From an uncultured Alphaproteobacteria bacterium (GTDB lineage: Bacteria > Pseudomonadota > Alphaproteobacteria > ATCC43930 > CGMCC-115725), in contig CAVSQC010000013.1 of the NCBI GenBank assembly GCA_963729845.1, forward strand, positions 23,261 through 87,260: 64,000 bases of DNA, written 5' to 3'. The notes under the pieces were generated by a model that made no database searches, was not told the DNA's origin, and saw only the letters and a list, made by a program, of their open reading frames with translations. Position 1 is the stretch's first letter. Every line of letters begins with the position of its first letter. A program made the translations under genes and the position numbers. Positions 3,476 to 55,360 of the stretch are shown here, piece by piece.

Positions 3476-4289
3476 ATGGAACTGAACCTCAAGGGCAAGA
3501 CCGCGGCCATCACCGGCGCCAGCAAGGGCATCGGCTTCGGCATCGCGGAGGAGTTGGCGCGCGAGGGCGTCAATCTGCATCTCGCGGCGCGCAGCGGGGC
3601 CGAGCTGAAGCGCGCGGCCGACGATCTGAAGAAGCGGTTCGGCGTCGCGGTCGAGACCCATGCCGTCGATCTGTCGAAGCGCGATCGGCGCGACGATTTT
3701 GCGCGCGCCGTCGCCGGCGTCGACATCCTGGTGAATTGCGCCGGCGCCATTCCCGGCGGCACGCTCGACCAGGTCGACGAGGATCGCTGGCGCGAGGGGT
3801 GGGAGCTTGAAGCTGTTCGGCTATTTCGGCATCACGCGCGTCGTCTACAAGGCGATGTGCGACCGCCGCCGCGGCGTCATCATCAACATCGTCGGCGCCG
3901 GCGGCGTTCTGACCGGCGCCGGCTATATCTGCGGCGGACCCGGCAACGCCGCCGTCATCAACTTCACCAACAGCCTCGGCGGCGAAGCCATTCGCTATGG
4001 CGTGCGGGTCGTCGGCATCAATCCCGGTCCGGTCGACACGCCGCGCCTGCAGTGGCTGCAAAAGCAGGCGGAGGAAAAAGTCGCGCCGCAGGATCTGGAA
4101 ACATGGCGTCGCCAGCGGTTCCGCGGCATGGCCTATGGCCGGCCCGCGCGCGTCGACGAAATCTCGGGCATGGTGGCGTTCCTGGCGTCGGACCGCGCGT
4201 CCTACATCACCGGCACGATGATCAACATCGAGGGCGGCACCATCGCGCGCGGCGGCGCACCCGGCGACCCGATCGGCAGCAACGCCTAG
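3476..4289 (+). pseudogene. SDR-family oxidoreductase, frame broken near 3806
   Basis: TGASKGIG Rossmann motif in the frame starting at 3476. The protein continues (LKLFGYFGITR...INPGPVDTP) in the next frame from about 3807. One extra base in gagcttgaag. Confidence 0.8.
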
Positions 4290-5488
4290 CCGAGGATCCG
4301 CGCCGCCGTCTCTTTCCCGTTGGCGAACGCGGCCTCGACGGTGCCCATGTCGGCGCCGCGATAGAGCGCCTCGCCCGCATAATAGAGCACGCCGTCGAGC
4401 GGCTTCGACAATTCGTCCTGGGCGGCGTGGCTCTCCGGCGTGGCATAGGAATAGGCGCCCCGCGCGAACGGGTCCTGGCCCCAATGGATCGCGCGGGCGG
4501 CGGTCAGCAGCGGTCGCGCGTCGATCTCGAAAATCCGCGACACGGCGTCAAGCCCGGCCTCGATCAATTCCGGCTCGGACAATTTCGACTTCGCCGCGCG
4601 CGGCCCCGCGAACCAGCCGGTCAGCACCGGATGCGGCCGCGGATATTGCGTCCACCACGTCGGCACTAATTCGTCGGAGAGCATGAAGGACAGGCGGGAC
4701 AGGTCGCGGCCTAGCGCGTTCGCCCAGAATTTGGTCTTGAAGCCGAGCAGCAGCTTGATGACGTCGCCATAACCGATGGCGTCGGCGGCTTTGAGCTTCG
4801 GCGCGAAGCCGGGACCGAAATCGATGTCACGAAGCACCGGCAACGGCACCGTGTTGACGATGCGTTCGGCGCTGAAGGTAGCGCCGTTGGCGCAGCGCAC
4901 GGTGGGGCCATCGACGGCCTTAACCTCGGCGTTGAACTGGATCGCGCCGCCATGCGTGCGAATCTCGGCGGCGAGGAAATCCATCAGCGCGCCATAGCCT
5001 TCCTCGACGCGATGCGATTGCCGCAATCCGCCGCCGAGCCATTCGTCGCGCAGGGCGAACGTGCTTGCCCGCGTCGGGTCGGCGGCGTCGTAGCCCTCGG
5101 TCATGCGGATGATCGAGCGCCGCATCCCGCAAATTTCGCGTCGGCAAAATTCTCCTCGAGGAATTGCGCGATCGTCAGATCGTGGTTCAGCGCGGCGAGC
5201 TTTCTCGGGAAGCAGCTCAAATCCGGGCATGTCCTCTTCCACGTCGCTGAGCTTGCCGCCGCGTTTGTCCCAACGCTCGCCGTCGCGGCGGCCGCGCACC
5301 AGGGTCAGCCCGGCGTCGCGCACCAGCGCCTTGGTGACGGGCGCCTCGCCGTGGATGAACTCGGCGCCGCCCTCCGCGCGATAGCCGAACTCGCTCGCCG
5401 GCAATTCCCAAATACGGCCGCCGACGCGGTCGCGCGCTTCGAGGATGGTAACTCGATGGCCGGCGCGCGCGAGTTCGCGCCCGGCCAT
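4286..5488 (-). CDS. FAD-dependent amine oxidase family protein (start and an internal segment look damaged)
   Basis: The dinucleotide motif ITVIGAGAAG lies upstream of the first ATG (5488) with no canonical start after an in-frame TAG at 5537-5539. Segment ~5127-5202 reads better in another frame (KLAALNHDLTIAQFLEENFADAKFAG), indicating a compensated indel pair. Confidence 0.7.
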   Translation of the reverse strand: MAGRELARAGHRVTILEARDRVGGRIWELPASEFGYRAEGGAEFIHGEAPVTKALVRDAGLTLVRGRRDGERWDKRGGKLSDVEEDMPGFELLPEKARRAEPRSDDRAIPRGEFCRREICGMRRSIIRMTEGYDAADPTRASTFALRDEWLGGGLRQSHRVEEGYGALMDFLAAEIRTHGGAIQFNAEVKAVDGPTVRCANGATFSAERIVNTVPLPVLRDIDFGPGFAPKLKAADAIGYGDVIKLLLGFKTKFWANALGRDLSRLSFMLSDELVPTWWTQYPRPHPVLTGWFAGPRAAKSKLSEPELIEAGLDAVSRIFEIDARPLLTAARAIHWGQDPFARGAYSYATPESHAAQDELSKPLDGVLYYAGEALYRGADMGTVEAAFANGKETAARILG

Positions 5489-5567
5489 CAGCCCCGCCGC
5501 CCCCGCGCCAATGACGGTAATGAGATGGAGGGATCCCTAACGTTTGCACCGCGCAATTTGAACTATA

Positions 5568-5646
5568 TTCGTCATTCCTGCGAAAGCAGGAATCCAGGGC
5601 AAGCGACGTGCGTTGGCCCTGGGTCCCCGCTTTCGCGAGGACGACG
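5568..5646. repeat. REP family B (two hairpins: GTCATTCCTGCGAAAGCAGGAATCC ... GTCCCCGCTTTCGCGAGGAC)
   Basis: An inverted copy with the same architecture lies at 31361-31438. Confidence 0.8.
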
Positions 5647-5653
5647 AAAAGAT

Positions 5654-7241
5654 TTACCGCGCCGTGATCTTGTCGAAATTGAGCCGCATATCGTCGAACA
5701 TCTTGATCGCGGTGGCGCGGCCGGCGCCGAATCACGCCGCCGCCCGGATGCTGGAATGGCCCGACGAGATAGAGCCGCTCGACCCCGGGCACCGTGTAGT
5801 TGCCGAGCTCCGGCGTCGGGCGATGCGCGCCGGACTGGTAGGCGTTGGGCGCGATGCCGTGGATATCGCCTCGGCGGAAGCTCGACGAGGTGCGCTCCAT
5901 GTCGAGCGGCGTGTCGTCGTGATGCGCCAGGATGTTGGCCGGCGTCAGGTTCGCGATGAATCCGCTCATATGGTCGAGCATGGCGTCGGCGAATTCCTTT
6001 TTCTTCGCGTCCCAAGCGGCGCGGCCGCCTCGCGGATGCTCGTAAGGGCAATAATCCCAGGCGTGCATCGTCGCCTTGCCCGGAGGCGCGCGGCTCGGGT
6101 CGAGGTTCGACGGCGAGCCGAGGCCGACGAGACGCGCGCGCGGCATGCGGCCGTAGCGCAGATCGTCGAAATGCTCGCGCAGATGATCGAGGCTCGGCGG
6201 CAGCAACTCGATCATCATCGCCTTGCCGACATGATCGCCGGCCTTGAATTTCAGTGGCTCGTTCAGTGCGGCGTGGATGGTGAAGACGCAATTGGCGCCG
6301 ATCTCGGTCTTTGCCGCGTCGTTGCGCGATCGGCCGGATCGATGCCCAGCGACGAAAGCCGCCGATATCGTGCGGGTGGATCGCGCCGATCACGCCGTCT
6401 TTCGCCATGAATTCGCGCCCATCCTTGGCGTGCACGCCGGTTGCGCGGCCCGCCTAGACGATGACGCGGTCGCAATCGACGCCGGTGACGACTTGGCCGC
6501 CATGGTCCTCGATCAGTTTCGCCAGCGCCCGGGTCAGCGTGCCGCTGCCGCCGACCGGCACGCCGATGCCGTATTGCTCGAGGAAGGCGAGAAACACGAA
6601 CAGGCCGAGGCCGGTGCCTTTTTCCTCCGGCCCGACCAGGTGCTCGCTGACGATGCGGAGCAAGTGCAGCCGCACGCGGTCGTTCTCGAACCATTCGGTG
6701 ATGATGTCGTAGCCGCTTTTCTGCATGGTCTGGAACATGGCGCGGCCTTCGCGGCTCTGATCCATCATCGCGTACATGGCGCCGACCGGCGCCGGCGGCG
6801 AGTACATTCCGCCCGTCAGCAGCGGCAGATAGCGCCGCCGCCTAGCTCGGCGAAGCGCAGATAGGATTCTGCGTCCTTTTTCGAGAAGCGCTCGAGTTCG
6901 CGATAATTCTTCTGACGGTCGCGCCACAGCGGAATCGTCTCGCCGTCGGGAAACACCGAGATCGTCGGCATCTCGGGATAGGTGTACTTCATCCCGTACT
7001 TGGAAATCAGGCCGAGCTCGTCGTTTTTGATCAGCGGATTGGCCTGGATGAAGATATGCGCCATCGAGTGCTGGTCGTGGTGGAAGCCGGGCAGGGTCAG
7101 GTCGCGCGTCACCACGCCGCCGCCGAACCAGGGTTGGCGCTCCAGCACCGTGACCTTCTTCCCGGCCTTGGCGAGATAGGCCGCGGCGACCAGGCCGTTA
7201 TGCCCCGACCCGATGACGACGATGTCGCTGTTCTCGGCCAT
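5654..7241 (-). pseudogene. NAD(P)/FAD-dependent oxidoreductase, phytoene-desaturase (CrtI/COG1233)-like, multiply disrupted
   Basis: N-terminal [12 protein letters not shown] motif. The readable protein crosses frame breaks at ~6834, ~6345, ~6300 and ~5729. There is an in-frame TAG at 6454-6456 (RVIV*AGRATGV). It ends at TAA 5654-5656. Confidence 0.75.
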
Positions 7242-8322: not shown

Positions 8323-9086
8323 CCGAGCTCAGCGACGCCCAGTTCGAGCGTTACGCGCGTCACTTGATCCTCGACCAGGTCGGCGAGGAAGGGCAGGAGA
8401 AGCTCTTGGCCTCGCGCGTGCTGATTGTCGGCGCCGGCGGGCTCGGCTCGCCGCTGCTGCTCTATCTTGCGGCGGCGGGAGTCGGTACGCTCGGCATCGT
8501 CGACGACGACACGGTCGATCTCTCCAACCTCCAGCGCCAGATCGTGCATCCCAGCGGCGCGATCGGCGCGCGGAAGGTCGACAGCGCCCGCGCCACGGTG
8601 GCCGCGATCAACCCCGACGTGCGGGTCGAAACCCACGCGGCGCGGCTCGACGAGCGCAACGTCCGCGATCTCGTCGGCGCGTACGATCTGGTCGCCGACG
8701 GCAGCGATAATTTCGCCACGCGCTATCTCTTGAACGACACGTGCTACACGATGCGCCGCACGCTGGTCGGCGCGGCGCTGTCGCCGTTCGACGGTCAGCT
8801 CTCGACCTTCAAGGCCTATCTCGGACCGCCGCATCCCTGCTATCGCTGCCTGTTCCGCGAGGCGCCGCCGCCCGACACGGTGCCGCGTTGCGAGACCGCC
8901 GGCATTCTCGGCGCCGTCGCCGGCGTGATGGGCACGCTGCAAGCGACCGAGGTGCTGAAGGAACTGCTCGGCATCGGCGAGAGCCTCTCCGGCACGCTCC
9001 TGATGTACGACGCGCTGCGCGCCGGTTTCCACAGGATCAAAATTCCGCGCGACCCGGATTGTCCGACCTGTGGGCGTGGTCAGTGA
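8319..9086 (+). CDS. moeB: Molybdopterin-synthase adenylyltransferase / ThiF-MoeB family E1-like enzyme
   Basis: ATGA overlap with the cysK stop. [17 protein letters not shown] nucleotide loop, CYRC ... CPTC zinc motifs. Only the last 255 aa of ORF 7056-9086 are real. Confidence 0.85.
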
Positions 9087-10188
9087 TGGTGGTGCGCGTG
9101 ATGATCGTGATGCGCGTGCATCATCGGGTCGGCGGCGGGCTAGCCAGAACAGGACGACAGCGACGATGCCGAAAACGATGTTCAGCCAGAACGTATAGTT
9201 GAACGAGAACTGCACCATCGCGGCGTGCATGTCGGGGCGGCGCGCCGGCACCAGGCCGAGCGCGTTGAACGACGACATCCATGGCGAGCGCCGCCGCGAC
9301 CATCGTGGCGTAGAACACGCCGCCGATATACGCCGCCATCCTCCAGCCGAAATAGCGCCGATACACGTCGAGCAGCGGCAGCACGATCAGATCGGCGTAG
9401 AGAAACGCCAGCACGCCGCCGAAGCTGACGCCCGAACCCCACAGCACCGCCGCCATCGGCACGTTGCCGATCGAGCACACGAAGGACAGGATCGCGACCG
9501 CCGGCCCGAGCAGCGCGTTGGCGGGGATTTGCACCCAGGGGCTGGCGCCCTCGACGAACAGGGTTCGCCACACGCCGTCCGGCACAAACGCCGACAGGGC
9601 GCCGGCGATGACGAAGCCGAGCAGCAAATCCTTCCACAACATGCTCCAATCCATCGCGAAGGCTTGCGCCACCCGTATCCAGACGGAGCCGCCGGCTATG
9701 TCATGGTTGTGATCGTGGCCCCGATGCGGTTCGGGGTGATGGCGCGCGGCTTCGACAAGCGCGCGCGGATAGGTGACGCGCACTAGCACCGCCATGATCG
9801 AGATCAGCACTACCCCACCGATCCATTCGCCGGCCGTGAATTCCCAGCCCATCAGCACATAGAGCACGATGCCGAGTTCGATCACGAGATTGGTCGAGGC
9901 CAGCAGGAAGGCGAGGGCGGGTGTCAGCGCCGCGCCCTTCTTGAACAGCGTCCGCGTCACCGCGGCGGCGGCGTACGAGCAGCTCGAGCTCGCGGCGCCG
10001 GCGACGGTGGCAAGCGCAATCTCGCACACGCCGTTGCGGCCGAGCGCCGAGGCGATGCGCTCCTTCGAGACGAACACTTGCAGCACGGCGGAGATGGCGA
10101 AGCCCAGCACCAGGCTCCAGCCGACCTGCCAGAACATGCCCGCGGCCATCAGCAGCGCGTCGGCGACGCGCGGGACGAAATCAGCCAT
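9080..10188 (-). pseudogene. Permease (COG0701/ArsP-like) with His-rich C-terminal tail, frame broken twice
   Basis: MADFVPRV... multi-TM protein. Frame breaks at ~9280 and ~9110. The tail [12 protein letters not shown] ends at 9080. The ATG overlaps the upstream regulator stop (ATGGCTGA). Confidence 0.7.
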
Positions 10189-12780: not shown

Positions 12781-13484
12781 TCAGCTCCGTCCGTAGACCG
12801 GGACGATGCCGCCGCTGGTGACGCGATTGTCGGGCGAGGCGAGATACAGGATGGTCGCGGCGACATCCCCCGGCTTGGCCCATTTCGAGGCATCGGCCTT
12901 CGGCATCGCGGCACGGTTCGCCGGCGTGTCGAGCGTGCCGGGCGCCACGGCGTTGACCAGGATATTCTCGCCGATCACCTCCGCCGCCAGCGCCTGCGTG
13001 AACGCCGCGACCGCCGCCTTGCTCGTGGCGTAGGCGGTCATGCCGGCGGCGTGATGCGGCTCGATCCCGGGCCGCGCCGTGACGTTGACGATGCGCCCGC
13101 CTTGCCCGATTTTGCGCATCGCGCCGACCGCCGCGCGGCTCGCCAGGAAACAGCTCACTCAAATTCATCTCGATCTGCGCCATCAACGCGTCGCGGCCGG
13201 TCTCGGCGATCGGCGCCATGGCGAACCCGCCGGCGATCTGGATGGACGCCCACAGCGCGCCGACGCCGGCATAGAGTTTCGCGACCGCCGCTTCGTCGCC
13301 CAACTGCGTTTCAACGAGGCGCACCTTGGGATGATCGCGATGGGCGAAGCGCTCCGCCTCGGCGGGGTGGATCCACGGCACGTGCAACGCTGGCGCCGCG
13401 CGCGAGCAGCGCGCCGACCACGGCGGTGCCGAGCGCGCCGGTGCCGCCCGTCACCACCACGTCGCGACTGGAAAAGTCCGTCAT
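12781..13484 (-). pseudogene. SDR-family oxidoreductase, two frame breaks
   Basis: MTDFSSRDVVVTGGTGALG start (ATG 13484). Continues in other frames from ~13385 and ~13160. YATSKAAV catalytic motif in the last segment. Confidence 0.75.
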
Positions 13485-13681: not shown

Positions 13682-14994
13682 ATGTCCGCACCTTCGGTGG
13701 GCGCCGGGCCTTCGGCCCGCGCCGTGGCACTCGATCTGTTGGCCGCCGTGCTGTGGCGGCATCAGGCGCTCGACGAGGCCTTGGCGTCGCATCAAGGCCT
13801 GGCGCGGCTCGACCCGCGCGACCGCGCCTTCGCCCGGCAACTCGTCGCTACCGTATTGCGTCGCCTCGGCCAGATCGACGCGCTGATCGCGTACGCGCTG
13901 ACGGCGCCGTTGCCGGAGCGCGCGCGGCCGGTGACGAATCTGTTGCGGCTCGGCGTGGCGCAGATCGCGTTTCTCGGCACGCCGTCGCACGCCGCCGTCT
14001 CGACCGCCGTCGATCTCGTTGAAGCGATCGGTCATCCGAAGATGAAGGGTCTCGTCAACGCCGTGCTGCGCCGCCTCGCGCGGGAAAGCGAAGGGCTGAT
14101 CGCGGCGCAGGACGCGGCGCGCCTCAACACGCCGGACTGGCTGTGGCAAGCTGGTGCGCCGCTTACGGCGAAACCGTGACCCGCGCCATCGCGGCGGCGC
14201 ATGTCAAGGAACCGCCGCTCGATCTGAGCGTGCGCGATCCGGCCGCGGCCGCGGATTGGGCTGCGCGGCTCGACGGCGTGATGCTGCCGACCGGCTCGAT
14301 CCGCTGCCGCGATGCGGGCCTGGTGACGGAGCTCCCCGGCTATGACGAGGGCGCGTGGTGGGTGCAGGACGCGGCGGCGGCGCTGCCGGCCCGCCTTCTC
14401 GGCGAGGTCGCGGGCAGGCCCGTGATCGATCTGTGCGCGGCGCCCGGCGGCAAGACGGCGCAGCTTGCGGCGATGGGCGCGCGGGTGGTCGCGGTGGATC
14501 GCTCGCCGTCGCGCATGGTGCGGCTCAAGGACAATCTCGCGCGCCTGTCGCTGGCGGCCGATTGCGTTATCGCCGACGCTGCGACCTGGCATCCGCCAGA
14601 GCCGGCGGCCCTGGTATTGCTGGACGCGCCGTGCACGGCGACCGGCACCATCCGCCGCCATCCCGATATTCCCCATCTCAAGAGCGGCGACGATGTCGCC
14701 CGTCTGACCCAATTGCAGGCGCGGCTGCTCGACGCCGCCATGGCGATGCTGGCGCCGGGGGGCACACTGATCTACGGCGTGTGCTCGCTCGAAGTGGAGG
14801 AGGGGCCGCGCCAGATGGCCCAGCTCTTGGCTCGCGGCACGCCGCTGCGCCGGCAACCGATCGGCGCGGACGAGATCGGCGGGCTTGAGCAATGCGTCAC
14901 CGCGGACGGCGACCTCCGCACCCTGCCATGCCACCTCGCGGATGAAGGCGGCCTCGACGGGTTCTATGCCGCGCGACTGGTGCGGCCCGCATGA
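13682..14994 (+). pseudogene. rsmB: 16S rRNA (cytosine-C5) methyltransferase RsmB/Sun family, frame break near 14150
   Basis: NusB-like N-terminal part in the frame of 13682. SAM-MTase part (DLCAAPGGKT, DAPCTATG, IYGVCS) in ORF 14143-14994. Confidence 0.8.
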
Positions 14995-14995
14995 T

Positions 14996-15615
14996 CTAAT
15001 CGAGTTTGCGCGCGACCAGATCGACCAGCGCCGACATGCCGACATGGCGCTTGCCTTCGCTCATCGTTTCCTCGTGTTCGCGCAAATGCAGGATGGCGTA
15101 GCCAGCGAACATCGCGCGCAGCATGTCGGCAGTGTAGAGATGATCGAGTTGGGGCGGGCCGCCGGTGCGATAGTCGAGCTGCTTCGGCGTATAGGCTTGC
15201 AGCACGATCAGCCCGCCCGGCTTAAGCGCCGTCTTGAGCCGCTCGAAGAACAAGCGCACGCTCCGCCGGCCCGAACTGAATGAAGATCACGACGATCAGC
15301 ATCGAAGCGCTCCCGTCCCCAGTCCCAGGTCAGCAAATCCGCGCACTCGGTCCTGACCGCGACGCCTTCGCGCGCCGCCAGCTTGCGCGATTTGGCGAGC
15401 GCTACCGGCGAAAAGTCGACGGCGAGGACATCGAGCCCCTGTTTCGCCAGCCACACGCCGTTCCGGCCTTCGCCGTCGGCCACCGCCAGCGCCGTCATGC
15501 CGGGACGAAGCAGCGCGGCTTGCGCGGCGAGGAAGGCGTTCGGCGCCTCGCCGAAAATATAGTCGTCGGTAGCATAGCGTTCGTTCCATTGGGTCAATCG
15601 CGGATCGTCGGACAT
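14996..15615 (-). pseudogene. Class I SAM-dependent methyltransferase, two frame breaks (~15290, ~15255)
   Basis: MSDDPRLTQWNERY...ALAVADGEGRNG then LIVVIFIQFGPAER then RLFFERLKTALKPGGLIVL, read in three different frames. Confidence 0.7.
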
Positions 15616-15710: not shown

Positions 15711-16382
15711 ATGGAGCGTTGGATCGAGCTGGCCCGCGCGACGACGGCCGAGGGCGACGAATTCGATTTTGCGCGGGCGCGACACCGAATTCGAGATCCG
15801 CTTCAACGGCTGGGAGCTGATGTCGAGCCGGACCTCGGTCTCCGAGGCGGCGCTGGCCCGCTTGGTCTTTGCCGAATGCACCGGAAGCCGGCGCGGCTTC
15901 TCGTCGGCGGCTTGGGCATGGGATACACGCTTCGCGCCGCGCTCGACGCCGTCGCTTCCAGCACGATGATCGTTGTCGCCGAGTTGGTGCCCGCGGTGAT
16001 CGATTGGGTTCGCGGCCCGCTCGCTGGTCTCGCTGCGCCGGCCGCTCGACGATCACGCGTGTCGAAATTCATATCGGCGTCGTCGCCGACATGCTGACCG
16101 GCAACCCCGGCAGCTTCGATGCCATCCTTCTCGACACCGACAACGGTCCCGAAGCGGTGATGCGGGAAGCCAACCGCTTCCTCTATACGCGCGAGGGGAT
16201 GCACGTTAGTGATGCGGGCGCTCGAGACAAGGCGGCGTCGCCGGTTATTGGTCCGCCGATCGTTCGCCGGCGTTCGAGGCGATCCTCGCCGAGGCCGGTG
16301 CCGTATGGCGGCGCGTCGATGTCGATGCGCGCGGCGGCGGCGCGGCCCCGAGCATTCGTTCTATCTGGTCCGAAAACGCTAG
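15711..16382 (+). pseudogene. Spermidine-synthase-like (polyamine aminopropyltransferase fold) protein, heavily disrupted
   Basis: Readable pieces MERWIELARATTAEGDEFDF / RDTEFEIRFNGWELMSS / LLVGGLGMGYTLRAAL / FDAILLDTDNGPEA lie in different frames. At least four breaks. Confidence 0.55.
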
Positions 16383-16579: not shown

Positions 16580-17571
16580 ATGCGCAAGATTGCTTGGGCA
16601 TTGGCCGCAATTGTCGTCGTGGTCCTGGCGGCGGCGGCCGGCGTGCTCGCGTTCGACGCGCCGGCGAAACCGCCGACGCTGGCCTCGATCCAAGATCCAT
16701 TCGCTACGGTCGATTTCCGCGACCTGCCGCCGGTGCAAACCTACGCCGCGCGCGATGGCGTCAGCTCGGTTATCGCGCTTACGAGGGCGCCGGCGACCAG
16801 ATCGTGGTGATGATCCATGGCTCGTCCGACGACGGCAGCGGCATGCACGCGTTGGCCAAAGCGTTTCGCGATGCCGGCGCATCGGTGTATGTTCCGGTGT
16901 TGCGCGGCCATTACGGCTCGCCGCGCCAGGGCGACATCGACTATATCGGCCAGCTCGACGACGATCTCGTCGACATGGTGTCGATGCTGCGCGCGTCGCA
17001 TCCGAAGGCGAGCCTGTCGTTGATCGGTTTTTCCTCCGGCGGGGGCTTCGTGCTGCGCGTGATCGGCGGCGCTGATGAAAAACTGTTCGACCGCTTCATC
17101 CTGATTTCGCCCGCGTTGCCGCCGGGCGCGCCGACGCACCGGCCGAACTATGGCGACTGGGCCTCGGTGGCGGTGCCGCGCATCATCGCGCTGTCGCTCT
17201 TCAACCGCATCGGCATCGATTGGTTCAACGGCTTGCCGATCGTCGCCTTCGCAACCTCGCCCAAGGTCAAGTCGTTGACAAGCTGGTATTCGTTCCGCCT
17301 CGCGGTCAATTTCGCCGCGCCGATGCGCGACTACCAGGCGGCACTGCCGCATAGCAGCAAGCCCGTGGCGCTTTTGGTCGGCGGTTCGGATGAACTGTTC
17401 TATCCTGAAAGATTTGCGCCCACACTCCAGCCCGGCCGGCCCGATCTCAAGGTCACGATCGTGCCTGGCCTCGGACATATCGGGATGACGGTGACGCCCG
17501 AAGGTATCGCCGCGGTGGTGAAAGCGTGGCGGGAGATGACCGTGCCGAGTCACTCACCCGCGTCGAGTTAG
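16580..17571 (+). pseudogene. Alpha/beta hydrolase with N-terminal membrane anchor, frame break near 16765
   Basis: GAGGAGG then ATG 16580 (MRKIAWALAAIVVVVLAAAAG). Continues in ORF 16594-17571 (VVMIHGSSDDG, IGFSSGG nucleophile elbow). Confidence 0.75.
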
Positions 17572-19154: not shown

Positions 19155-19304
19155 TTGCAAAGCTCCGTGCGTCCCCCGACTGCTCGCTCGGCTTGCGCCT
19201 GGCATCGCGCTCGGGATGAGGTAAAGCCTTTCCTCATCCTGAGCACGAAGCCCGGACGAAGTTCGGGCGAGTAGTCGAAGGACGACCATTCCTATGCATC
19301 GCTG

Positions 19305-32670: not shown

Positions 32671-32688
32671 GAGCCCGAAAAGCCCGCG

Positions 32689-42127: not shown

Positions 42128-43422
42128 GTGACGGAGCGTCGCGGCCTCGCCGTTTTATGGCGCAATCGTCGCGATCGCGGCAGTGCTTTTCACCCTCATG
42201 CCGCGGCTCGATCTCGGGGTGGCGGGCTGGTTCTATCGCGGGCGATTTTTCCTCGCCGACGATGGGGTGCTGCACGTCCTCTTTCATCTCGTCTATTGGG
42301 TGACCGACGCGCTGGCGGTGTTGTTGCCCTTGGCGTTGGCGATCATCTTGATTCGCAAGCGGCCGGTCTTCGGCCTCGATTGGCTGGCCGCGACCTTCTT
42401 GATCGTGTCGCTCGCGATCGGTCCCGGGCTGGTGGTCAACACCGCGCTCAAGGATCATTGGGGCAGGGCGCGGCCGAGCCAGATCGTCGAATTCGGCGGC
42501 GTCAAGCAGTTCACGCCGGCGCTCGAGCCGAGCGACCAGTGCGACCGCAACTGCTCTTTTCCCGCCGGCCATCCGGCCATCGGCTTTTATTTTGTTTCGT
42601 TCGCTTTGCTGATCCCGGCGATGCGGCGGCGGCGGATCGTGTTCGGGGCCGCGATCGTAGCCGGCGCTCTCCTGGGCCTGATGCGGATGGCGCAGGGCGC
42701 GCATTTTTTGTCGGATGTCGTGTTTTCCGGATTGATCGTGGTCGGGGTCGCTTGGCTGTGCCACGATCTGATCGTGCGGCGCGGCGGCATCGCGGCGCTG
42801 TCGGGCGCGTGGCGGCTTGTCGCCATCGGCGTGGTCTGCTTCCTCGTCGGCGCCGCCTCGTATTTTTTCTACGACCGGCCCGTGGCGGCGTTCGCGCACG
42901 GGCTCGATTTGCGCATTCATCCCGCCGCCGCCTTCATCACCCGATTCGGCTACTCCGACGGTTATCTGATCCTCAGCGCGCGTCGCCTTTGTGGTGTTCT
43001 ATTTCATTTTGCGGCGCTGGCGCGATCAGGCATGGCGCGCGGCCTTCATGTTCATCAATGTCGCGCTGTCGGGTCTCGCGGTCGACGTGGTGAAATGGAT
43101 TGTCGGGCGCGCGCGGCCGTCCTTGTTCTTCCATGACGGGATTTACGGCTTCACCTGGTTCGCGGCGCGCGCCGATCATTGGTCCTTTCCCTCCGGTCAC
43201 GGCCAGACCGCGAGCGCGCTCGCCCTGTCGCTGACCACGTTCTGGCCGCGGTTCTGGCCGGTGTGGTGGCTGGCGGCGGTGCTGGTGATGGCGAGCCGGC
43301 TGGTGCTGGGCGCGCATTACCTGAGCGATCTGCTCGGCGGGTTCTATATCGCGTTGGCGGTATGGTGGGGCGTGCGCGCCTGGTTCGCGCGACAGGGCCT
43401 GCCGCTCAGGGAAAACCCTTGA
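42128..43422 (+). pseudogene. Tandem double PAP2-family phosphatase, frame break near 42980 (and possibly at the TTTT run at 42153-42156)
   Basis: First PAP2 has KDHWGRARP ... PAGH ... AQGAHFLSD. Second has GRARP ... PSGH ... VLGAHYLSD, in ORF 42991-43422. Confidence 0.75.
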
Positions 43423-45492: not shown

Positions 45493-46490
45493 TCAGCCCC
45501 AGCGCACGAAACCCAGGCCCGTGCCGGTCAGCGCCGGCGTGCGATAGCCCGGGATATAGTCCGCCCAGGTGATTTTCATGCCGGTGCCCGCGACCGCGCC
45601 GGCGACGACCAGCCAGTTGCGGATCTCCGACGTGCCGGCCTGCAGCCGCTTCGGCGTCAGCTTCGCGAGCCAGTCGAGATCGCCGCGCTTCAACGCGTCG
45701 ATGACGCCGTGGTCGAGCTTTTCGTCCACCACGAAATGCGACAGGCCGCCCGAGCCGAGGAAACCGACGCGGATGTTATCGGGATAGCTCTGGATGAGTT
45801 TCCCGATCTCCTTGCCGAGCTCGATGCAGCGCTCCGGCGTCGGCGGGTTCGGCTCGTAGTAGGTGTTGACGAAGATCGGCACGATCGGCAGCCGATGGCC
45901 CTTCAGGTAGCGCCGGTGGATGAAGGAATAGGCGTGGCCCTCGGATTGGCCCGGCGTCATCGCGCTGATCGCGGTGATGTCGAATTTCCGTCTCGGTCAG
46001 GCCTTGGATCAAATGCTTCGCCAGGCCGGCATGGACCGGATACTCGACGTCGGCGCCATCCTCTTTGCGGCGCTGTTGCGCGCGGTGATACCAGTCGTCG
46101 GGCGGACAGGTCGGTGCGCGCCTTGGTGTTGCGGATGGTCTCGCCGTAATAGATCGCGATCGCGGGATTGTGCTGCGGCGGGAACAGTTCGTGCTGGTCG
46201 TCGCCGACGATGATCAGCGCGTCGAGCTGCGCGCTTTGGATCTCGTCGCGCATGTGATCCATCGTCGCCTGGGTCTTGTGCCAGCGCTTCGAGATCGCGT
46301 CCGGCGCGATCAGCGGCGCCGCATGATCGGCGAACTTCGTCACCAGCTCGTCGTACGAGATCAGGTCGCCGTTGAAATCGTGATGCGTCATGCGCTTGTC
46401 GGAGGGCGGGAATTTGCCGACCCAGTCCTCCTCCTGGCACACCAGCATGACGCTGTGCGATGAACCGAAGGCCGCCGCGAATGTCGCCAT
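45493..46490 (-). pseudogene. Class III extradiol ring-cleavage dioxygenase (LigB family), two frame breaks (~46095, ~45975)
   Basis: Segments ...IIVGDDQHELF..., DDWYHRAQQRRKEDGADVEYPVHAGLAKHLIQG and GQSEGHAYSFIHRRY...GSGGLSH lie in three frames. Confidence 0.7.
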
Positions 46491-46513
46491 GCCCGCTCCC
46501 TCCTATCCGCCCC

Positions 46514-47636
46514 TCAATCGCCCCAGACGTCGCGCGCCGTGTCCACGATCAGCTTCAGTTTCGCGATCTCTTCCTCAACCGTGATCTTATTGCCTTCGAG
46601 CGTCGAGGAAAATCCGCATTGCGGGCTCAGCGCCAGTTGCTCCAGCGGCAGGAATTTGGCCGCCTCGTCGATGCGCCGCTTCAGCTCGTCCTTGGTCTCG
46701 AGCTTGCCCTTCTTGGTCGTGACCAGGCCCAGCACCACCACTTTGCCCTTGGGCACGAAGCGCAACGGCTCGAACCCGCCGGCGCGCGCTGAATCGTATT
46801 CGAGGAAATAGCCGGTGATGTCGATTTCGTTGAACAGCGTCTCGGCCACCGGCTCGTAGCCGCCCGGACGCGACCCAGGCGCTGGCGGCGTTGCCGCGGC
46901 AGAGATGCATGCACACCGTCATGTTCGCGGGCTTGCCGGCGATGGAATTGTTGATGAGCCGCGCATACGTGTGCGGCAGCTTCTCCGGGTCCTCGCCGAT
47001 CTGGCGCACCTGCTCGCGCAGGTTCGGATCGCACAGATAGGCGAAATTGGTCTCGTCGATCTGCAAATAGGTGCAGCCGTTGCGGCCGAGATCGGCGATC
47101 TCCTCGGAATAGACGCGGGCGAGGTCGGTGTAGAACTCCTCGATGTCCGGGTACGCCGTCTCGTCCACCGATTTGCGTCCGCCGCGGAAATGCATCAGCG
47201 ACGGCGAGGGAATCGTGATTTTCGGCACTCTTTTGGTGACGGATTTGAGATAATTGAAGGCGTCGATGAAGATCGGCCGCGGCCGCGACAATTTGCCGGC
47301 GACGAACAGGCCAGGCGGGATCATCTCGGTGGCGCCTTCCTCGGTGTGGAAGCGCATCTTCACCGTGGTCGGCACGATCTTGACGTTGGCGAAGCTGACC
47401 AGGAAATCGCGTTGCCAGCCGGAACGCGAATATTCGCCATCGGTCACCGATTTGAAGCCGATTTCCTCCTGCATCTTCACCACGTCGCGGATCGCAGCGT
47501 GCTCGATCTCGTGGAATTTCTCCTCAGAGATTTCCTTCTTGTCGCGCGCCTTGTAGGCGTCGACCAGGGCCTGCGGCTTTTTCAGACTGCCGACCTGGTC
47601 GGCGCGAAACGGCGGCGTATTGCGGGGAAGCGGCAT
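46514..47636 (-). pseudogene. Cobalamin-independent methionine synthase (MetE C-terminal domain) family protein, frame break near 46872
   Basis: FRADQVGSLKKP ... HLCRGN in one frame. GYEPVAETLFNEIDITGYFLEYD ... SPQCGF in ORF 46514-46849. Confidence 0.8.
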
Positions 47637-49590: not shown

Positions 49591-50385
49591 CTATGAACTG
49601 AGACCATCCAACGTCCGCGCCAATAAATCGAGGTCGCGGGGTCGGGAGAGGCGGTGGTCGCCGTCTTTAACCAGAGTCACCTCGACGTCGCCGCCCGGCA
49701 GATGCGCGGCGAGATCGAGACTGGTTTGCCATGGCACGTCCGGGTCCTGCATGCCGTGGAGCAGCCGCACGGGACATGCAATGGGCAACGGCTTGTCCAT
49801 CACTAGATGCCGCCGGCCGTCCTCGATCAGTTTGCGCGTAAAGCGATACGGCGCATCGCCATATTGCGACGGCATATCGACATAACCGTCGCGCATGATC
49901 GTCGCCTGCGATCTCCGGGGAGAAGCCGTGCCACATCAGCGCCTCGGTGGCGTCGGGCGCGGCGGCGATGCCGACCAAGCGCGCGCGACGCGCGCCGGCC
50001 GATCCAATGCCGCCAACAGCATGATCCAACCGCCCAGGCTGGAGCCGACCACGATCTGCGGCCCATCGGTCAGCGCGTCGAGCACCGCGGCCGCGTCGGC
50101 GCGCCATCGTCCCACGGTTGCATCGTTGAAATCGCCGGACGAGGCGCCGTGGCCGAACGCGTCGAAGCGCAGAAAGGCGCGGCCGCGCGCCGCGGCATAG
50201 GCGTCGAGGAACGTCGCCTTGGTGCCGGTCATGTCCGACATGAAGCCGCCGAGGAACACGATGCCCGGCGCCGCGCCCTCGCGCCGGCGGTAGGCGATTG
50301 TCGCGCCATCCTCGCGTGTTAAGATTGAAGAAGGCCCAGATTCCTCGGGCATTGGTAGGTTCCGTGGCGGTTCAATCGACATCAT
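49591..50385 (-). pseudogene. Alpha/beta hydrolase, two frame breaks (~49990, ~49900)
   Basis: GIVFLGGFMSDMTG ... GSSLGGW nucleophile elbow, then LVGIAAAPDATEALMWHGFSPEI, then RDGYVDMPSQYG...LLHGMQDPDVP...DGDHRLS. Three frames. Confidence 0.75.
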
Positions 50386-50433
50386 CGGAGACTAGCATCG
50401 CGGCGCCGGCGCCTGACCGGCCGTCCGCCGGCC

Positions 50434-51553
50434 GTGCTGCAAGTCCTGCCGCGGCTCGACCAGGGCGGCGTCGAGCGCGGCACGGTCGAGGTCGCGGCGG
50501 CGCTGGTGCAGGCCGGCTGGCGCGCCGTGGTCGCGTCGGCGGGCGGGCGCATGGTCGGCGACATCCTGCGCGCCGGCGCCGAGCATGTCGAATTGCCGCT
50601 GGCGACGAAAAATCCGGCGGCGATCGTGCTCAACGCGGGGCGCCTCGCGCGGCTGATCGAGTCGCGGCACGATCGACATCGTCCACGCGCGCAGCCGCGC
50701 CCCAGCCTGGAGCGCGATGTTGGCCGCGCGCCGCACGCGGCGGCATTTCGTCACCACGTTTCACAACGCCTACGGCGCCGAGGGCTGGGGCAAGCGCCGC
50801 TACAATTCCGTGATGGCGCGGGGCGAGCGCGTGATCGCGATTTCGAGTTTCGTCGCCGCGCACGCCGCCGCGACCTACGGCGTCGGCAGCGACCGCCTGC
50901 GCATCGTCGATCGCGGCGTCGATCTCGAAAATTTCAATCCCGAGCGCGTCAACGCGTCGCGCATCGTGCGGTTGGCGGAGGCGTGGCGTCTGCCCGACGG
51001 CGTGCCGGTAATCGTTCTGCCCGGCCGGCTCACGAGCTGGAAAGGCCACGAGGTGCTGATCGAGGCGCTGTCGTGGCTCGGCCGCCGCGATGTCGTGTGC
51101 CTGTTCATCGGCGATGGCAGCGTGCGCTACCGGCAAGCGCTGGAGCGGCGCATCGCCGAATTGGGATTGGGCGGCCAGTTCAAGTTCGTCGATCACTGCG
51201 CCGACATGCCGGCAGCCTACATGCTCGCCGATGTCGTGGTCTCGGCGTCGACGCGCCCCGAAGGGTTCGGCCGCGTCATCGCCGAGGCGCTGGCGATGGG
51301 CCGGCCGGTGATCGCGACCGATCATGGCGGCGCCGGCGACATCGTCGTTCCCGGCGTCACCGGCTGGCTGGTGCCGCCGGACGACGCCAAGACGCTGGCG
51401 CGGGCGCTGCAATTGGCGTTGTCGCTGACCGCGGCGGAGCGCGCGGCCCTGGCCGAGCGCGCCATCGCCTCCGTCGCCGGCCGCTTCAGCAGCGGCGCGA
51501 TGACGGAACGGACCATCGCCGTCTACGAGGAAATTCTGTGGGGCAAGTCATGA
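50434..51553 (+). pseudogene. Glycosyltransferase family 4, frame break near 50668
   Basis: GTG start (M)LQVLPRLDQGGVERGT. Continues IDIVHARSRAPAWSA ... EGFGRVIAEALAMGRPVIATDHGG in ORF 50717-51553. Confidence 0.8.
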
Positions 51554-51935
51554 GCGGCGACGCCGCGGCGGGCAGTCGCCTTATCCTGATCCGGGACTTG
51601 ATCCTGCCGTGCGAGATCGGCGTCTTTCCCCACGAGCACGGGAAGAAGCAGCGGGTGCGCATCAACGCCACGCTCGCCGATTGCCGACGGCGGCCGGGCG
51701 ATCGAGGACAAATTGCCGGCGACGGTGTCCTATGGCGATATCATCGACCAGGTGAAGGCGATGGCGGATCGGCGGCCGTATCAATCTGGTGGAGACCCTG
51801 GCGGAGCGCGTCGCCGGCCTGTGTCTTGCCGACCATCGCGTGCGCTCGGTCCGCGTCCGGGTCGAGAAGCTCGACGTCTATCCCGACGGCACCATCGTGG
51901 GCGTCGAGATAGAGCGGTTTAATCATCGTGTCTAA
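51550..51935 (+). pseudogene. folB: Dihydroneopterin aldolase, two frame breaks (~51678, ~51770)
   Basis: ATGA overlap with the upstream stop. LILIRDLILPCEIGVFPHEHGKKQRVRINATLA / IADGGRAIEDKLPATVSYGDIIDQVKAMADR / GRINLVETLAERVAGL...GVEIERF. Confidence 0.75.
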
Positions 51936-52125: not shown

Positions 52126-54132
52126 TTGTGCAAGTCATGGAAATGTAAGGCTTTCGCGGGCGCGGCGGCTTGCCGCAGGCGTTTGCCAACAGTTTTATCC
52201 ACAGATTTCGTGGATATCTCCGAGGACGCCGAATTGATCGACGAATCGTTACCCGAGCACAATGATGACGATACCGGCGACGGACCGGGCGCCCAGGGCG
52301 TCGGGGTGATCCGCGCGGCGTTGGCGACGCTGCCGCCGTCGCCCGGGGTTTACCGGATGCTGAACGCGCGGGGCGACGCGCTCTATGTCGGCAAGGCGCG
52401 CAGCCTCAAGGCGCGCGTCGCCAACTACACGCATTTCATGGCACTGCCGCACCGGCTCCAGCGGATGGTCGCGGAGACGCGCAAGCTCGAAGTGGTGCTG
52501 ACCCACACCGAGGTCGACGCGCTGCTGCTTGAAAGCAATATGATCAAGCACTTGGAGCCGCGCTATAACATCGTGCTGCGCGACGACAAGTCGTTCCCGT
52601 ACATCCATCTCACCGGCGATACCGACTTTCCGCTCCTGACCAAGCACCGCGGCGGGCATGATGGCGCCGGCGATTTCTTCGGGCCGTTCGCGTCTGCGGG
52701 CTCGGTCAACCGCACCCTGATCGCACTGCAGCGCGCCTTTCTGCTACGCTCGTGCAGCGACAGCATTTTCGCGAGCCGCACGCGGCCGTGCCTGCTCTAT
52801 CAGATCAAACGGTGCAGCGCGCCGTGCGTCGGGCGCATCGACAAGGCGGGCTACGCCGCGCTGGTCGACGAGGCGCGCAATTTCCTCGCCGGCCGCAGCG
52901 CCGACGTGCAGCAGCGTTTCGCCGCCGAGATGCAGGAGCTGGCCGAGGCGCAACATTACGAGGCCGCGGCGTCGGTGCGCGACCGCATCCGCGCGCTGAC
53001 GCAGATCCAGGGCCATCAGGACATCAACATCCGCGAGCTGGGCGACGCCGACGTCATCGCCGCGCATCAGGCCGGCGGCCAGACCTGCATCCAGGTGTTT
53101 TTTTTCCGCGGCGGCCAGAATTGGGGCAACCGGCCGTACTATCCGGCGCACGCGCGCGACCTGGAGCTGGCCGAAATCCTCGGCGCGTTTCTCGGCCAGT
53201 TCTATGCGGACAAGGTGCCGCCGCGCCTCGTGCTGTTGAGCGAGGCGCCGGCCGACGACGGCGCTGATCGGCGAGGCGTTGGCGGCGCGCGCCGGCCGCT
53301 CGGGTCGAGTTGCAAGTGCCGCAGCGCGGCGACAAGCGGCAGCTGGTGGAGCAGGCGCTGGTCAACGCGCGCGAGGCGCTGGGCCGCCGCCTGGCCGAAA
53401 GCTCGGCGCAGCAGAAACTGCTCGCGGGCGTCGCCGCAGACCTTCGGCCTCGAGGCGCCGCCGAAGCGCATCGAGGTCTACGACAATTCGCATATCCAGG
53501 GCAGCAACGCGGTCGGCGGCATGATCGTCGCCGGGCCCGAGGGCTTCGTGAAGAACGCCTACCGCAAGTTCAACATCCGCGATCTCGAGAATCCCGGCGA
53601 CGATTACGCCATGATGCGCGAGGTGCTGACGCGCCGCTTTTCCCGCGCGCTCAAGGAGGATCCGGCGCGCGAGACCGGCGCCTGGCCCGACCTGCTGCTG
53701 ATCGACGGCGGCGCGGGGCAGGTGACGGCGGCGAACGCGGTGCTGGCCGATCTCGGCATCAACGATCTTTGCGTCATCGGCATCGCCAAGGGGCCGGACC
53801 GCGACGCCGGGCGCGAGCGTTTTTTCCGCGCCGGGCACGAGCCGATGAGCCTCGAGCCGCGCGACCCGGTACTTTATTTCCTGCAGCGCCTGCGCGACGA
53901 GGCGCACCGTTTCGCCATCGGCTCGCACCGCGCGCGCCGAACCAAGGCGATCGGCGTCTCGCCGCTCGACGAGATCGCCGGCATCGGCGCGCGGCGCAAG
54001 AAGGCGCTGCTGCATCATTTCGGCTCGGCGCGCAGCGTCGCCCGCGCCGGCCTGGTCGACCTCGAGCGGGTCGAGGGCATCAGCAAGAACGTGGCGAAGA
54101 AGATTTATGACCATTTCCATTCGGGCGGCTGA
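52126..54132 (+). CDS. uvrC: Excinuclease ABC subunit C (open ORF with an internal out-of-frame stretch ~53255-53440)
   Basis: GIY-YIG (PGVYRM...[13 protein letters not shown]), UVR, RNase-H-like (RIEVYDNSH) and HhH domains. The segment [14 protein letters not shown] / [26 protein letters not shown] is readable only in the two other frames. Start uncertain (TTG 52126, GTG 52210). Confidence 0.85.
52195..52217. promoter_or_regulatory. Inverted pair of DnaA-box-like 9-mers
   Basis: TTATCCACA (52195-52203, exact E. coli-type consensus) and, on the opposite strand, ATATCCACG (52209-52217, 7/9), separated by 5 nt. Confidence 0.4.
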
Positions 54133-54231
54133 TTGGTCGTCATGGTTGACCCGGCCATCTGGGCGAGCGACGGGTGAATAATTCCATTTGACCTAGCGTC
54201 GTTCTAAGATCGCCGTCGAGGATTTGACCGA

Positions 54232-54823
54232 ATGCCGATGAACCTGCCGAATCTGCTGACGCTGTCGCGCATCGTGGCGATTCCGCTGGTGATTCTGACC
54301 TTCTTCCTGCCGGCGCCGTTCGGCCCGTGGGCGGGCTGCGTGCTGTTCGCGGCGGCGGGCGTGACCGATTGGCTGGACGGCCAGCTCGCCCGGCGCTGGC
54401 ACCAGCAATCGGCCTGGGGCCGCGTGCTCGACCCGATCGCCGACAAGCTCCTGGTCGCGACCATCCTGTTCATGCTAGCGGCGCTCGAGCGCATCTCGCC
54501 GGTGACGATCTTTCCGGCGCTGGTGATCCTGGCGCGCGAGATCCTGGTGTCGGGCCTGCGCGAGCATCTCGCGATGCTGAACGTGCCGGTGCCGGTGTCG
54601 CGGCTCGCCAAATGGAAGACCGCGTTGCAGATGGTTGCGATCGGCGTGCTGCTCGGTCGGCGACGCCGGCCCGAGCGGCCTCCATGTGCGCACCGTCGGC
54701 GAGCTGCTGCTGTGGCTCGCCGCGGCGCTGACGCTGATCACCGGCTACGACTATTGGCGTGCCGGCATGTCGCATATCGGCGACGAGGACGCCAAGGCGA
54801 TGAAGCCCGAGGGCGCGCCCTGA
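54232..54823 (+). pseudogene. pgsA: CDP-diacylglycerol--glycerol-3-phosphate 3-phosphatidyltransferase, frame break near 54655
   Basis: NLLTLSRI ... TDWLDGQLARR ... DPIADK CDP-alcohol motif. The C-terminus (VGDAGPSGLHVRTVGELLLWLAAALTLITGYDYW) is in ORF 54635-54823. Confidence 0.85.
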
Positions 54824-54832
54824 TTCACGCCT

Positions 54833-55360
54833 ATGCCCCATAGCGGTCCCGTCTTCGGCCTTGCCGGCTGGAGCGGCAGCGGCAAGACCACGCTGATCGA
54901 GAAACTGTTGCCGGTGCTGGCGGGGCGGGGCTTGCGCGTCTCGACCTTGAAGCACGCGCACCAGGATTTCGATTTCGACAAGCCGGGCAAGGATTCCTGG
55001 CGCCACCGCCACGCCGGCGCCGCGCGAGGTGATGGTGTCGTCGCCAAAGCGCTGGGCGCTGGTCCACGAAGTGCGCGGCGAGATCGAGCCCGAGCCTGCG
55101 GCGATCTGCTGGCGCGCATGGGCGCGGCCGATCTGGTGATCGTCGAGGGGTTCAAGCGCGAGCCGTTCCCGAAACTCGAAGTGTATCGCGCGGCGCTGGG
55201 TAAGCCGCTGATCGCGCCGGACGATCGCGATATCGTCGCCATCGCCTCGGACGCGCCGGTGCCTGGCCTCGCGTTGCCGCGCTTCGACCTGAACGACGCG
55301 GCGGGGATCGCGGAATTCGTGATGCGTTTTTGCCGCCTGGGCGAGAGCCGCGCGGTCTGA
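54833..55360 (+). CDS. mobB: Molybdopterin-guanine dinucleotide biosynthesis adapter protein MobB (open ORF with a compensated out-of-frame segment ~55025-55095)
   Basis: GWSGSGKTTL P-loop and DLVIVEGFK. The middle part is readable as REVMVSSPKRWALVHEVRGEIEPEP only in another frame. Confidence 0.8.
   Translation: MPHSGPVFGLAGWSGSGKTTLIEKLLPVLAGRGLRVSTLKHAHQDFDFDKPGKDSWRHRHAGAARGDGVVAKALGAGPRSARRDRARACGDLLARMGAADLVIVEGFKREPFPKLEVYRAALGKPLIAPDDRDIVAIASDAPVPGLALPRFDLNDAAGIAEFVMRFCRLGESRAV

Follow-up and report, generated by a model that had tools for sequence, protein, structure and literature searches.

Reading-frame breaks in an alphaproteobacterial metagenome contig: probable long-read consensus errors rather than gene decay

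The window analyzed here, a stretch of 64,000 nucleotides from an uncultured alphaproteobacterium, is marked by a very high density of reading-frame breaks. This raises the question of whether the genes are decaying in the organism or were broken during assembly, two readings between which the initial annotation had not chosen. Codon-usage Viterbi segmentation places about 45 same-strand frame switches in the window, and the breaks were confirmed through alignment to a conspecific contig and through tblastn with the reference proteins. On the sequence comparisons set out below, the breaks very probably arose as consensus errors when noisy long reads were assembled into this metagenome contig. 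They are read as assembly errors because nearly all of these genes are intact in a conspecific genome that is 96–98.5 % identical.

Extent of the frame breaks

The reference is the conspecific contig_75154 of ENA ERZ25039587, which is 96.3–98.5 % identical to the window and collinear with its positions 663–64000. As it represents a different strain, 0–9 % divergent per kb, it would strictly show only that the lesions are window-specific. Alignment over this interval yielded 92 indel events, of which 53 insertions and 16 deletions are one base long, 7 events involve two bases, and a few are longer and mostly intergenic. The one-base events (69/92) are divided between 49 genic and 20 intergenic positions. 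Indels of a length that is not a multiple of three occur in 27 of the 65 reference genes (42 %). For the well-supported genes within 3476–55360, there are 43 frame-breaking events in 22 genes with the MetE-like gene (+1 at 46866) counted, and 42 in 21 without it. Within genes, only 3 indels keep the frame vs about 45–50 that break it, a ratio of ~15:1. The affected features are as follows, with the change in the window relative to the conspecific:

3476..4289, + strand: SDR, 270 aa in the conspecific; +1 at 3809, tblastn pieces in frames 2 and 3
4286..5488, − strand: amine-oxidase-type flavoprotein, 400 aa; −1 after 5126 and +1 at 5210, a compensating pair that puts ~28 codons out of frame and leaves the ORF open
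5654..7241, − strand: CrtI/CrtO-like oxidoreductase, 526 aa; +1 at 5733, +2 at 6329, +1 at 6348, 6355, 6832 and 6838; TAG at 6454–6456
9080..10188, − strand: ArsP-type permease, 368 aa; +1 at 9126 and 9272; zero substituted codons in the column-wise alignment, tblastn pieces 98–100 % identical
12781..13484, − strand: SDR, 233 aa; +1 at 13160 (GATTC site) and 13385
13682..14994, + strand: rsmB, 16S rRNA m5C967 methyltransferase, 437 aa; −1 after 14147
14996..15615, − strand: TPMT-like methyltransferase, 205 aa; +1 at 15255 and 15300
15711..16382, + strand: variable stretch, orf162 + orf64 in the conspecific; 9 small indels, gene status doubtful
16580..17571, + strand: alpha/beta hydrolase (Hydrolase_4), 330 aa; −1 after 16760
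19286..20604, − strand: Rieske/LigXa-type oxygenase, 433 aa; +1 at 19553, adjoining a GACTC site
22775..23300, + strand: orf174; +1 at 22909
24942..26553, + strand: GMC oxidoreductase, 536 aa; +1 at 25645 (GAATTC to GAATATC)
27526..29610, strand given as “.”: two small ORFs in a low-GC island; +1 at 27690 (GAG[T]TC) and +1 at 29517 (C4 to C5)
30837..33890, + strand: guanylate-cyclase/TPR protein, 1016 aa; −1 after 31411, +1 at 31556, 32242, 32776 and 32809
42128..43422, + strand: PAP2 phosphatase, 430 aa; +1 at 42150 and 42980, both missing in three other assemblies
45493..46490, − strand: LigB-type extradiol dioxygenase, 331 aa; +1 at 45990 and 46107
46517..47636, − strand: MetE-like cobalamin-independent methionine synthase, 373 aa; +1 at 46866
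49591..50316, − strand: alpha/beta hydrolase; +1 at 49908, 49977 and 49985 (net +3, the shifted part containing a stop); at 50026 the frame is intact in the window and broken in the conspecific
50405..51553, + strand: GT4 glycosyltransferase, 388 aa; +1 at 50666; 5′ end changed by an 879-to-89 bp replacement at 50317–50405
51550..51935, + strand: folB, dihydroneopterin aldolase, 127 aa; +1 at 51680 and 51771
52210..54132, + strand: uvrC, 639 aa; +1 at 53262, 53296 and 53437 (net +3); ORF open, ~58 codons out of frame
54232..54823, + strand: pgsA, 196 aa; +1 at 54655
54833..55360, + strand: mobB; +1 at 55024 and +2 at 55094 (net +3), ~24 codons garbled
55483..56852, + strand: orf457; −1 after 56012; outside the range of the initial annotation

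Each broken gene consists of 2–5 adjacent pieces in different frames that are 96–100 % identical to the reference protein. All gene classes previously named as broken were recovered; new to the set are orf174, a second amine-oxidase gene and, with 5 events, the guanylate-cyclase/TPR gene. The acs-like, EF-G-like, orf634/635 and GT39 genes, which had been described as clean, are clean against contig_75154; the best JGI homologue of GT39 is only 87 % identical. Scans of the window for tRNA genes and Rfam families returned nothing relevant.

The comparison with a sister genome, as had been suggested, favors an artefact. The broken genes are nearly all intact in contig_75154, in which mobB has a different frameshift of its own, located just after a GATTC site. 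The window lesions are absent from this contig, and only the extra G at 46866 is common to another assembly (L089). Shorter contigs of two further datasets (L082 and L089) match contig_75154 at the window insertion sites that they cover, with the exception of three messy sites in 45990–46866. Other long-read contigs of the clade have frameshifts that are their own and different, namely L001, L089 and contig_75154 itself (mobB and the MetE-like gene). The ORF sets of the more distant relatives L001–L008 are too noisy to be used alone in this 66 % GC genome; these relatives polarized five sites.

Spectrum and placement of the indels

Several of the breaks had been assigned to short homopolymers (5126–5128, 5201–5203, 42153–42156 and ~46095), an assignment that was not upheld, as the true sites lie 3–12 nt from the named runs. 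No homopolymer run is extended by 60 % of the one-base insertions, where random insertion would give 52 % and replication slippage, as used for comparison, would give run extensions in nearly 100 %. Only 7 of the 53 insertions make a run of three or more, which is no more than chance. The insertions are distributed over run lengths as expected at random, without homopolymer enrichment, and runs of four or more contain only a few events. Homopolymer slippage was thus rejected as the main cause, the insertions being mostly non-templated and outside runs. The textbook residue of Nanopore sequencing consists of homopolymer deletions. Because the insertion-dominated, non-homopolymer spectrum of the window is unlike this residue, the platform and the polisher can only be inferred.

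There is an association of the indels with the motif GANTC. Such a site occurs at a distance of at most 2 nt from nine of the 76 small indels, vs 1.3 expected (p = 6e-6; 7-fold), and GAGTC and GATTC were among the top 5-mers near indels in an unbiased scan. GANTC is the CcrM methylation site of Alphaproteobacteria. Tests for an association of indels with Dam (GATC), Dcm (CCWGG), EcoRI-site and CGATCG sequences were negative. An identical A insertion (GAG[A]TC) is present at 31556 and 32776, both GAGTC sites, within ~100 nt of identical context common to both copies. The earlier remark on a frameshift common to two paralogs fits this insertion, whose two copies belong to internal repeats of a single gene that are 90 % identical to each other. 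Nanopore errors at GANTC/CcrM and other methylation motifs have been documented (PMC12392509, PMC6591954).

An excess of CTAG/CCTAG at indels was also noted, resting on 3–4 sites only.

The distribution of the events had been called very uneven. The unevenness is real, with a dispersion index of 1.93 per kb bin (p = 1.6e-5), but its extent is moderate and due mostly to tightly spaced complex events, as the index is 1.37 (p = 0.03) after merging events less than 40 nt apart. Clustering is weak as evidence for decay for this same reason. In the example put forward, at least 8 breaks over four adjacent genes (14996–17571), those in the TPMT (2) and Hydrolase_4 (1) genes are solid, but the other 9 fall in the doubtful orf162/orf64. 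This pair has no Pfam match, shows more nonsynonymous than synonymous changes, and the stretch is missing in L002. Since orf162 and orf64 are doubtful as genes, some of the indels there may be real differences.

The indels were also set against the divergence of the two strains. The 20.5 kb with 0.15 % substitutions contain 14 small indels (0.68 per kb) vs 1.43 per kb, a ~2-fold higher density, in the 43.5 kb with 3.4 % substitutions. Overall, the indels do not follow divergence, as the nearly unsubstituted stretches have them too. Substitutions are found within 5 nt of 30 of the 76 small indels, where 18.5 would be expected.

Essential genes and selection

It had been proposed that normally indispensable genes (pgsA, folB and rsmB) are among those hit, and this holds with gene identities assigned by NCBIfam via the conspecific orthologues. 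The orthologues of pgsA and uvrC score above the NCBIfam equivalog cut-offs, and those of folB (71.5 bits, with the cut-off at 72.15) and rsmB are best matches over the full length that fall slightly short of the cut-offs.

Broken and intact genes show the same purifying selection; relaxed selection in the broken genes was not found in the codon-position profile or in the nonsynonymous/synonymous codon ratios when compared with intact genes. Codon position 3 accounts for 64 % of substitutions in broken vs 66 % in intact genes, and the codon ratio is 0.59 vs 0.50, respectively. There is 1 nonsense change among ~1,300 substitutions between the window and the conspecific. The in-frame TAG at 6454–6456 was confirmed, although the reference codon is AAG and not GAG as had been supposed. 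As a lone stop among ~1,300 otherwise selected-looking substitutions, it is weak evidence for decay.

Origin of the breaks

The preferred explanation is that of a Stellaceae-like soil alphaproteobacterium whose genes would be intact. The errors would be mainly spurious one-base insertions, introduced at ~0.7 per kb everywhere, with additional errors at the methylated CcrM motif GANTC and others where co-occurring strains differ; at such sites the consensus would merge two haplotypes. The platform was most likely Nanopore, within a long-read-only pipeline that lacked short-read polishing, and we infer a low coverage of the contig. Related MFD MAGs were produced with Flye and one Medaka round, with no short-read polishing (PMC12313526), and frameshift errors have been reported in Nanopore soil assemblies (PMC13087279). 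Strain variation is probably the true source of certain differences from the conspecific: the in-frame indels, the intergenic repeat and run-length changes, and the 879-to-89 bp replacement. Some of the orf162/orf64 events and the TAG codon are possibly of the same kind.

Gene decay that is real and very recent would require dozens of frameshift mutations, for example under a host-restricted or relaxed lifestyle or in a frameshift-prone mutator. It would accommodate the 42 % of genes hit, the clustering, the gene with 6 indels and a nonsense codon, the methyltransferase gene removed by the replacement at 50317–50405, and the presence of an IS1595 transposase. It is nonetheless very unlikely, as indispensable genes were not spared (pgsA, folB, uvrC and rsmB are broken), selection is not relaxed in the broken genes, and the non-templated insertions are not products of slippage. 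Indels are as frequent where divergence is 0.1 %, the ~15:1 excess of frame-breaking over in-frame genic indels opposes it, and the lesions are absent from the conspecific, with only the extra G of 46866 in L089. The lesions are also not the mixture that decay leaves, with 1 nonsense change vs ~45 frameshifts and no gene interrupted by an IS. Mutation furthermore offers no rationale for the enrichment at GANTC or for the same insertion being present in both repeat copies. The decay reading is therefore not supported, and an artefact is strongly supported by the conspecific comparison, the indel spectrum and the selection profile. A real recent burst of non-templated single-base insertions in a free-living soil lineage or a subpopulation of it, reaching even pgsA, folB and uvrC, could be imagined as an insertion-prone mutator or DNA-damage process that prefers CcrM sites, and is highly improbable. 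Recoding, in which the breaks would be bypassed by programmed ribosomal frameshifting or by slippage in transcription, merits almost no credence. Nothing specific speaks for it beyond the compensating pairs and triplets that keep the ORF open in uvrC, mobB and the 400-aa oxidase, and with insertions dominant, three +1 events restore the frame by arithmetic alone. Position-specific counts around the sites gave no shared slippery motif, and the same proteins are encoded in one frame in the conspecific.

A different division of the artefact, in which it stems chiefly from the collapse of co-occurring strains and not from read noise or methylation, is possible, if doubtful. Neighboring haplotype differences would both be kept as an insertion, and the retention of bases from both haplotypes would explain why insertions dominate. 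The sites 46107 and 46866 read as a union of the reference and L089 alleles, and 45990 is messy, with all three assemblies differing. The excess of substitutions near indels and the ~2-fold higher indel density of divergent segments also point in this direction. Against this are the 14 indels in stretches nearly identical between strains and the several indels that are motif-linked or in runs; the collapse would also presuppose a strain mixture in the source sample. Consensus error from noisy long reads remains the preferred reading, and its value is practical and not biological. Annotation would wrongly present about 4 of every 10 genes of the stretch as pseudogenes, as split genes or as garbled proteins. 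ORF-based checks miss several of the defects, those of uvrC, mobB and the 400-aa oxidase, since the errors offset one another and leave an open ORF. Pseudogene counts, gene content, dN/dS and protein families derived from this MAG would mislead. The link to GANTC points to methylation-aware polishing as a means of eliminating some of the errors in long-read MAGs from Alphaproteobacteria.

Mycobacterium leprae and Sodalis glossinidius have the pseudogene-rich genomes of recently host-restricted bacteria. The window is similar to these in the large fraction of interrupted genes, but in these species selection is relaxed, nonsense changes occur together with deletions and IS insertions, lesions are common to relatives, and essential genes are spared, none of which is seen in the window. 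Another likeness is seen in the Nanopore errors at methylation motifs (Dcm CCWGG in Enterobacteriaceae; GANTC/CcrM in Brucella), which share with the window the motif enrichment and the same error in identical contexts (PMC6591954, PMC12392509). A difference is that only ~12 % of the window events are linked to the motif, which is putatively methylated. In long-read assemblies with frameshift errors, the usual residue, as in the sister contig L089, is homopolymer deletions, unlike the window insertions outside homopolymers. As in the window, single-base indels in such assemblies truncate or split conserved genes and are not reproduced elsewhere, and defects of this kind occur in sister contigs named in the same style, as contig_N or MFD... 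(PMC12313526, PMC13087279).

Frame breaks relative to a conspecific contig

The nearest named relatives of the window (66% GC; tRNA and Rfam scans of the 64 kb gave zero matches) are uncultured Alphaproteobacteria/Stellaceae MAGs. Among species-representative genomes, L001, a long-read MAG from Microflora Danica, is closest (~89% nucleotide identity); L002, a short-read Stellaceae MAG, stands at ~83%. Cluster look-ups of the window genes led to contig_75154 (ENA ERZ25039587, 799 kb), from another strain of the same species, which was tiled across the whole window in five overlapping loci with zero conflicts. It is collinear with positions 663-64000 at 96.3-98.5% identity, and each of the 65 genes predicted on it gives a clean translation.

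Codon-usage Viterbi segmentation placed ~45 same-strand coding-frame changes in the window. Block-wise alignment to contig_75154 gave 92 indel events, of which 53 add a single base to the window, 16 remove one and seven are two bases long; the few longer ones are nearly all intergenic. Indels with a length not a multiple of three affect 27 of the 65 reference genes. The initial annotation had described about two dozen broken genes, and every gene it named was confirmed as broken by indel alignment and tblastn against the conspecific. Within 3476-55360 there are 42 such events across 21 well-supported genes, or 22 with the MetE-like gene. Apart from mobB, the conspecific genes are intact where the window is broken; in tblastn each of their proteins is spread over neighbouring stretches of the window that lie in different frames, with 96-100% identity on either side of the break. 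The conspecific pgsA and uvrC score above the NCBIfam equivalog cut-offs, with rsmB just under its own and folB likewise (71.5 bits; cut-off 72.15); all four match collinearly along the full profile length. In uvrC (52210-54132), mobB (54833-55360) and a 400-aa oxidase (4286-5488), the net indel length is 0 or +3, so that the ORF remains open through 24-58 out-of-frame codons, defects that would escape an ORF-length check.

The TAG codon reported at 6454-6456 is present, the reference codon being AAG, and the acs-like, EF-G-like, orf634 and GT39 genes are clean, as had been claimed:

43406-44941, GT39 gene

Some gene names require correction. The “acs” products (701 and 578 aa) are of the CoA_binding/ATP-grasp_5 type and resemble ADP-forming acyl-CoA synthetases, “EF-G” is an EF-G-family protein of 675 aa, and the neighbour of the Rieske oxygenase resembles glutamine synthetase (Gln-synt_C); these genes lie at 17715-19154, 20743-22770, 10672-12777 and 47717-49453.

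The very uneven spread first described is real (dispersion index 1.93, p = 1.6e-5) but modest. Counting events closer than 40 nt as one lowers the index to 1.37 (p = 0.03), and thus most of the clustering consists of compact complex events, for example 6329/6348/6355, 6832/6838, 16192-16223 and 49977/49985. The placement of several breaks in short homopolymers did not hold, as the true indel positions are 3-12 nt away and homopolymers are not enriched.

Strain divergence and structural differences

Divergence from the conspecific over 663-64000 forms a mosaic of 0-9% per kb, with low blocks (0-0.3%) at 7-10, 26-35 and 36-40 kb, high blocks (4-9%) at 5-7, 15-17, 48-51 and 58-59 kb, and substitutions mainly at codon position 3. 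Homologous recombination between strains would be expected to leave such a pattern. An 8.3-kb segment, 26550-34850, differs by ~0.1% from the conspecific with flanks at 2-4%, and is missing from L001 (89%) and L002 (83%). Its first part is low in GC (52-57% GC, 26.5-30 kb) and carries small ORFs; a guanylate-cyclase/TPR gene (1016 aa) and a PAS_5 gene come next. The whole has the look of an island that was acquired, or swept, recently. The low-GC segment contains:

29780-30736, IS1595-family transposase

A minority of the differences are probably real, in-frame indels among them. These probably include the A8/A7 run at 44984 and the 8-bp repeat unit at 49517; the intergenic tandem repeat CTTGGTG(C/T) at 49510-49530 is present twice in the window and three times in each of the two conspecific assemblies. 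The divergent intergenic spacers 19157-19310 and 58305-58404, which cannot be aligned with the conspecific, are probably real as well. The conspecific spacers carry G/C-rich palindromes (e.g., CCCTCCCCCCTTGAGGGGGAGGG), missing or replaced in the window, that may be REP-like elements. At 50317-50405, 89 bp replace 879 bp of the conspecific that carry a Methyltransf_23 gene (253 aa) and the 5' ends of the adjoining hydrolase and GT4 genes. These two genes retain alternative start codons in the window, and the structural difference between the strains is probably real. The variable orf162/orf64 stretch (15711..16382, + strand) has nine events, zero family matches and more nonsynonymous than synonymous changes, and some of its events are perhaps real. 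The TAG codon could be a genuine variant or an error. Position 50026 shows the opposite polarity, with the window reading GSSLGGWIMLLAAL through a hydrolase nucleophile elbow where both conspecific assemblies have a stop. Two independent assemblies of the conspecific strain (L081 4913-4916, L082 464-467) divide this alpha/beta hydrolase into 106 + 142 aa, in both cases with TGA directly after GSSLGG; this may represent a genuine frameshift in that strain.

Origin of the frame breaks

The ~1,300 substitutions fall at codon position 3 in 65% of cases (64% in broken genes, 66% in intact genes), the nonsynonymous/synonymous codon ratio is 0.59 in broken and 0.50 in intact genes, and only one substitution creates a stop. 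The substitutions are therefore genuine, selected strain differences, with broken genes under the same constraint as intact ones. Selection on real variation leaves more in-frame than frame-breaking indels; the opposite is seen here, with only three in-frame genic indels (-3, -3, -6) against ~45-50 frame-breaking ones. Near-identical sequence (20.5 kb, 30 substitutions) holds 14 small indels, or 0.68 per kb, and the 43.5 kb at 3.4% divergence holds 1.43 per kb. One indel per two substitutions in mostly coding DNA is far from a product of evolution. The ArsP permease has zero substituted codons in column-wise alignment and pieces 98-100% identical to the conspecific protein, and carries two frameshifts. 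On the sequence evidence, an assembly artefact is the best explanation and very probable, and genuine recent gene decay is highly improbable. There is no biological novelty here.

Real single-base insertions arise mostly by slippage, which copies a neighbouring base. Here the inserted base is unlike both neighbours in 60% of cases, in agreement with the 52% expected for a random base in a random place. On the + strand, the one-base insertions add C 24, A 13, G 14 and T 2 times; this asymmetry (C+A 37 versus G+T 16) has no evident biological cause and could stem from the consensus algorithm. GANTC is the N6-adenine methylation site of CcrM in Alphaproteobacteria. Of the 76 small indels, nine are no more than 2 nt from this motif, whereas 1.3 would be expected (p = 6e-6), and an unbiased scan of 5-mers ranks GAGTC and GATTC among its highest. 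The motif is described as a CcrM site in this class (PMC12392509), and systematic errors in Nanopore consensus sequences have been traced to methylated motifs (PMC6591954, PMC12392509). The guanylate-cyclase/TPR gene has the same A insertion, GAG[A]TC, at 31556 and 32776, in two copies of a repeat whose surrounding ~100 nt are identical; the frameshift once ascribed to two paralogs is very likely this one.

An insertion-rich, non-homopolymer profile is unusual for Nanopore, and collapse of co-occurring strains could plausibly contribute to it, as a sub-mechanism of the artefact rather than its rival. Substitutions lie within 5 nt of 30 of 76 indels versus 18.5 expected. At 46107 and 46866 the window resembles a union of the reference alleles and those of L089 (a contig of 6.6 kb belonging to a further ENA assembly in the same series); at 45990, a messy site, the three assemblies all differ.

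Comparison with sister assemblies

L089 lacks the window’s insertions at 42150 and 42980 and carries roughly twelve private indels, most of them deletions, which disrupt GT39 and LigB. L001 is frameshifted at sites where the window and L002 are intact. The MetE-like gene is broken in contig_75154 where L082 and the window agree. The mobB gene of contig_75154 also has a frameshift of its own, immediately after a GATTC site. Sporadic, non-reproducible frameshifts are thus a property of this assembly class. A related catalogue used Flye with one Medaka round and without short-read polishing (PMC12313526), and extra frameshift errors have been reported for Nanopore soil assemblies (PMC13087279). 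The frame-break density of the window is far beyond that of a finished bacterial genome.
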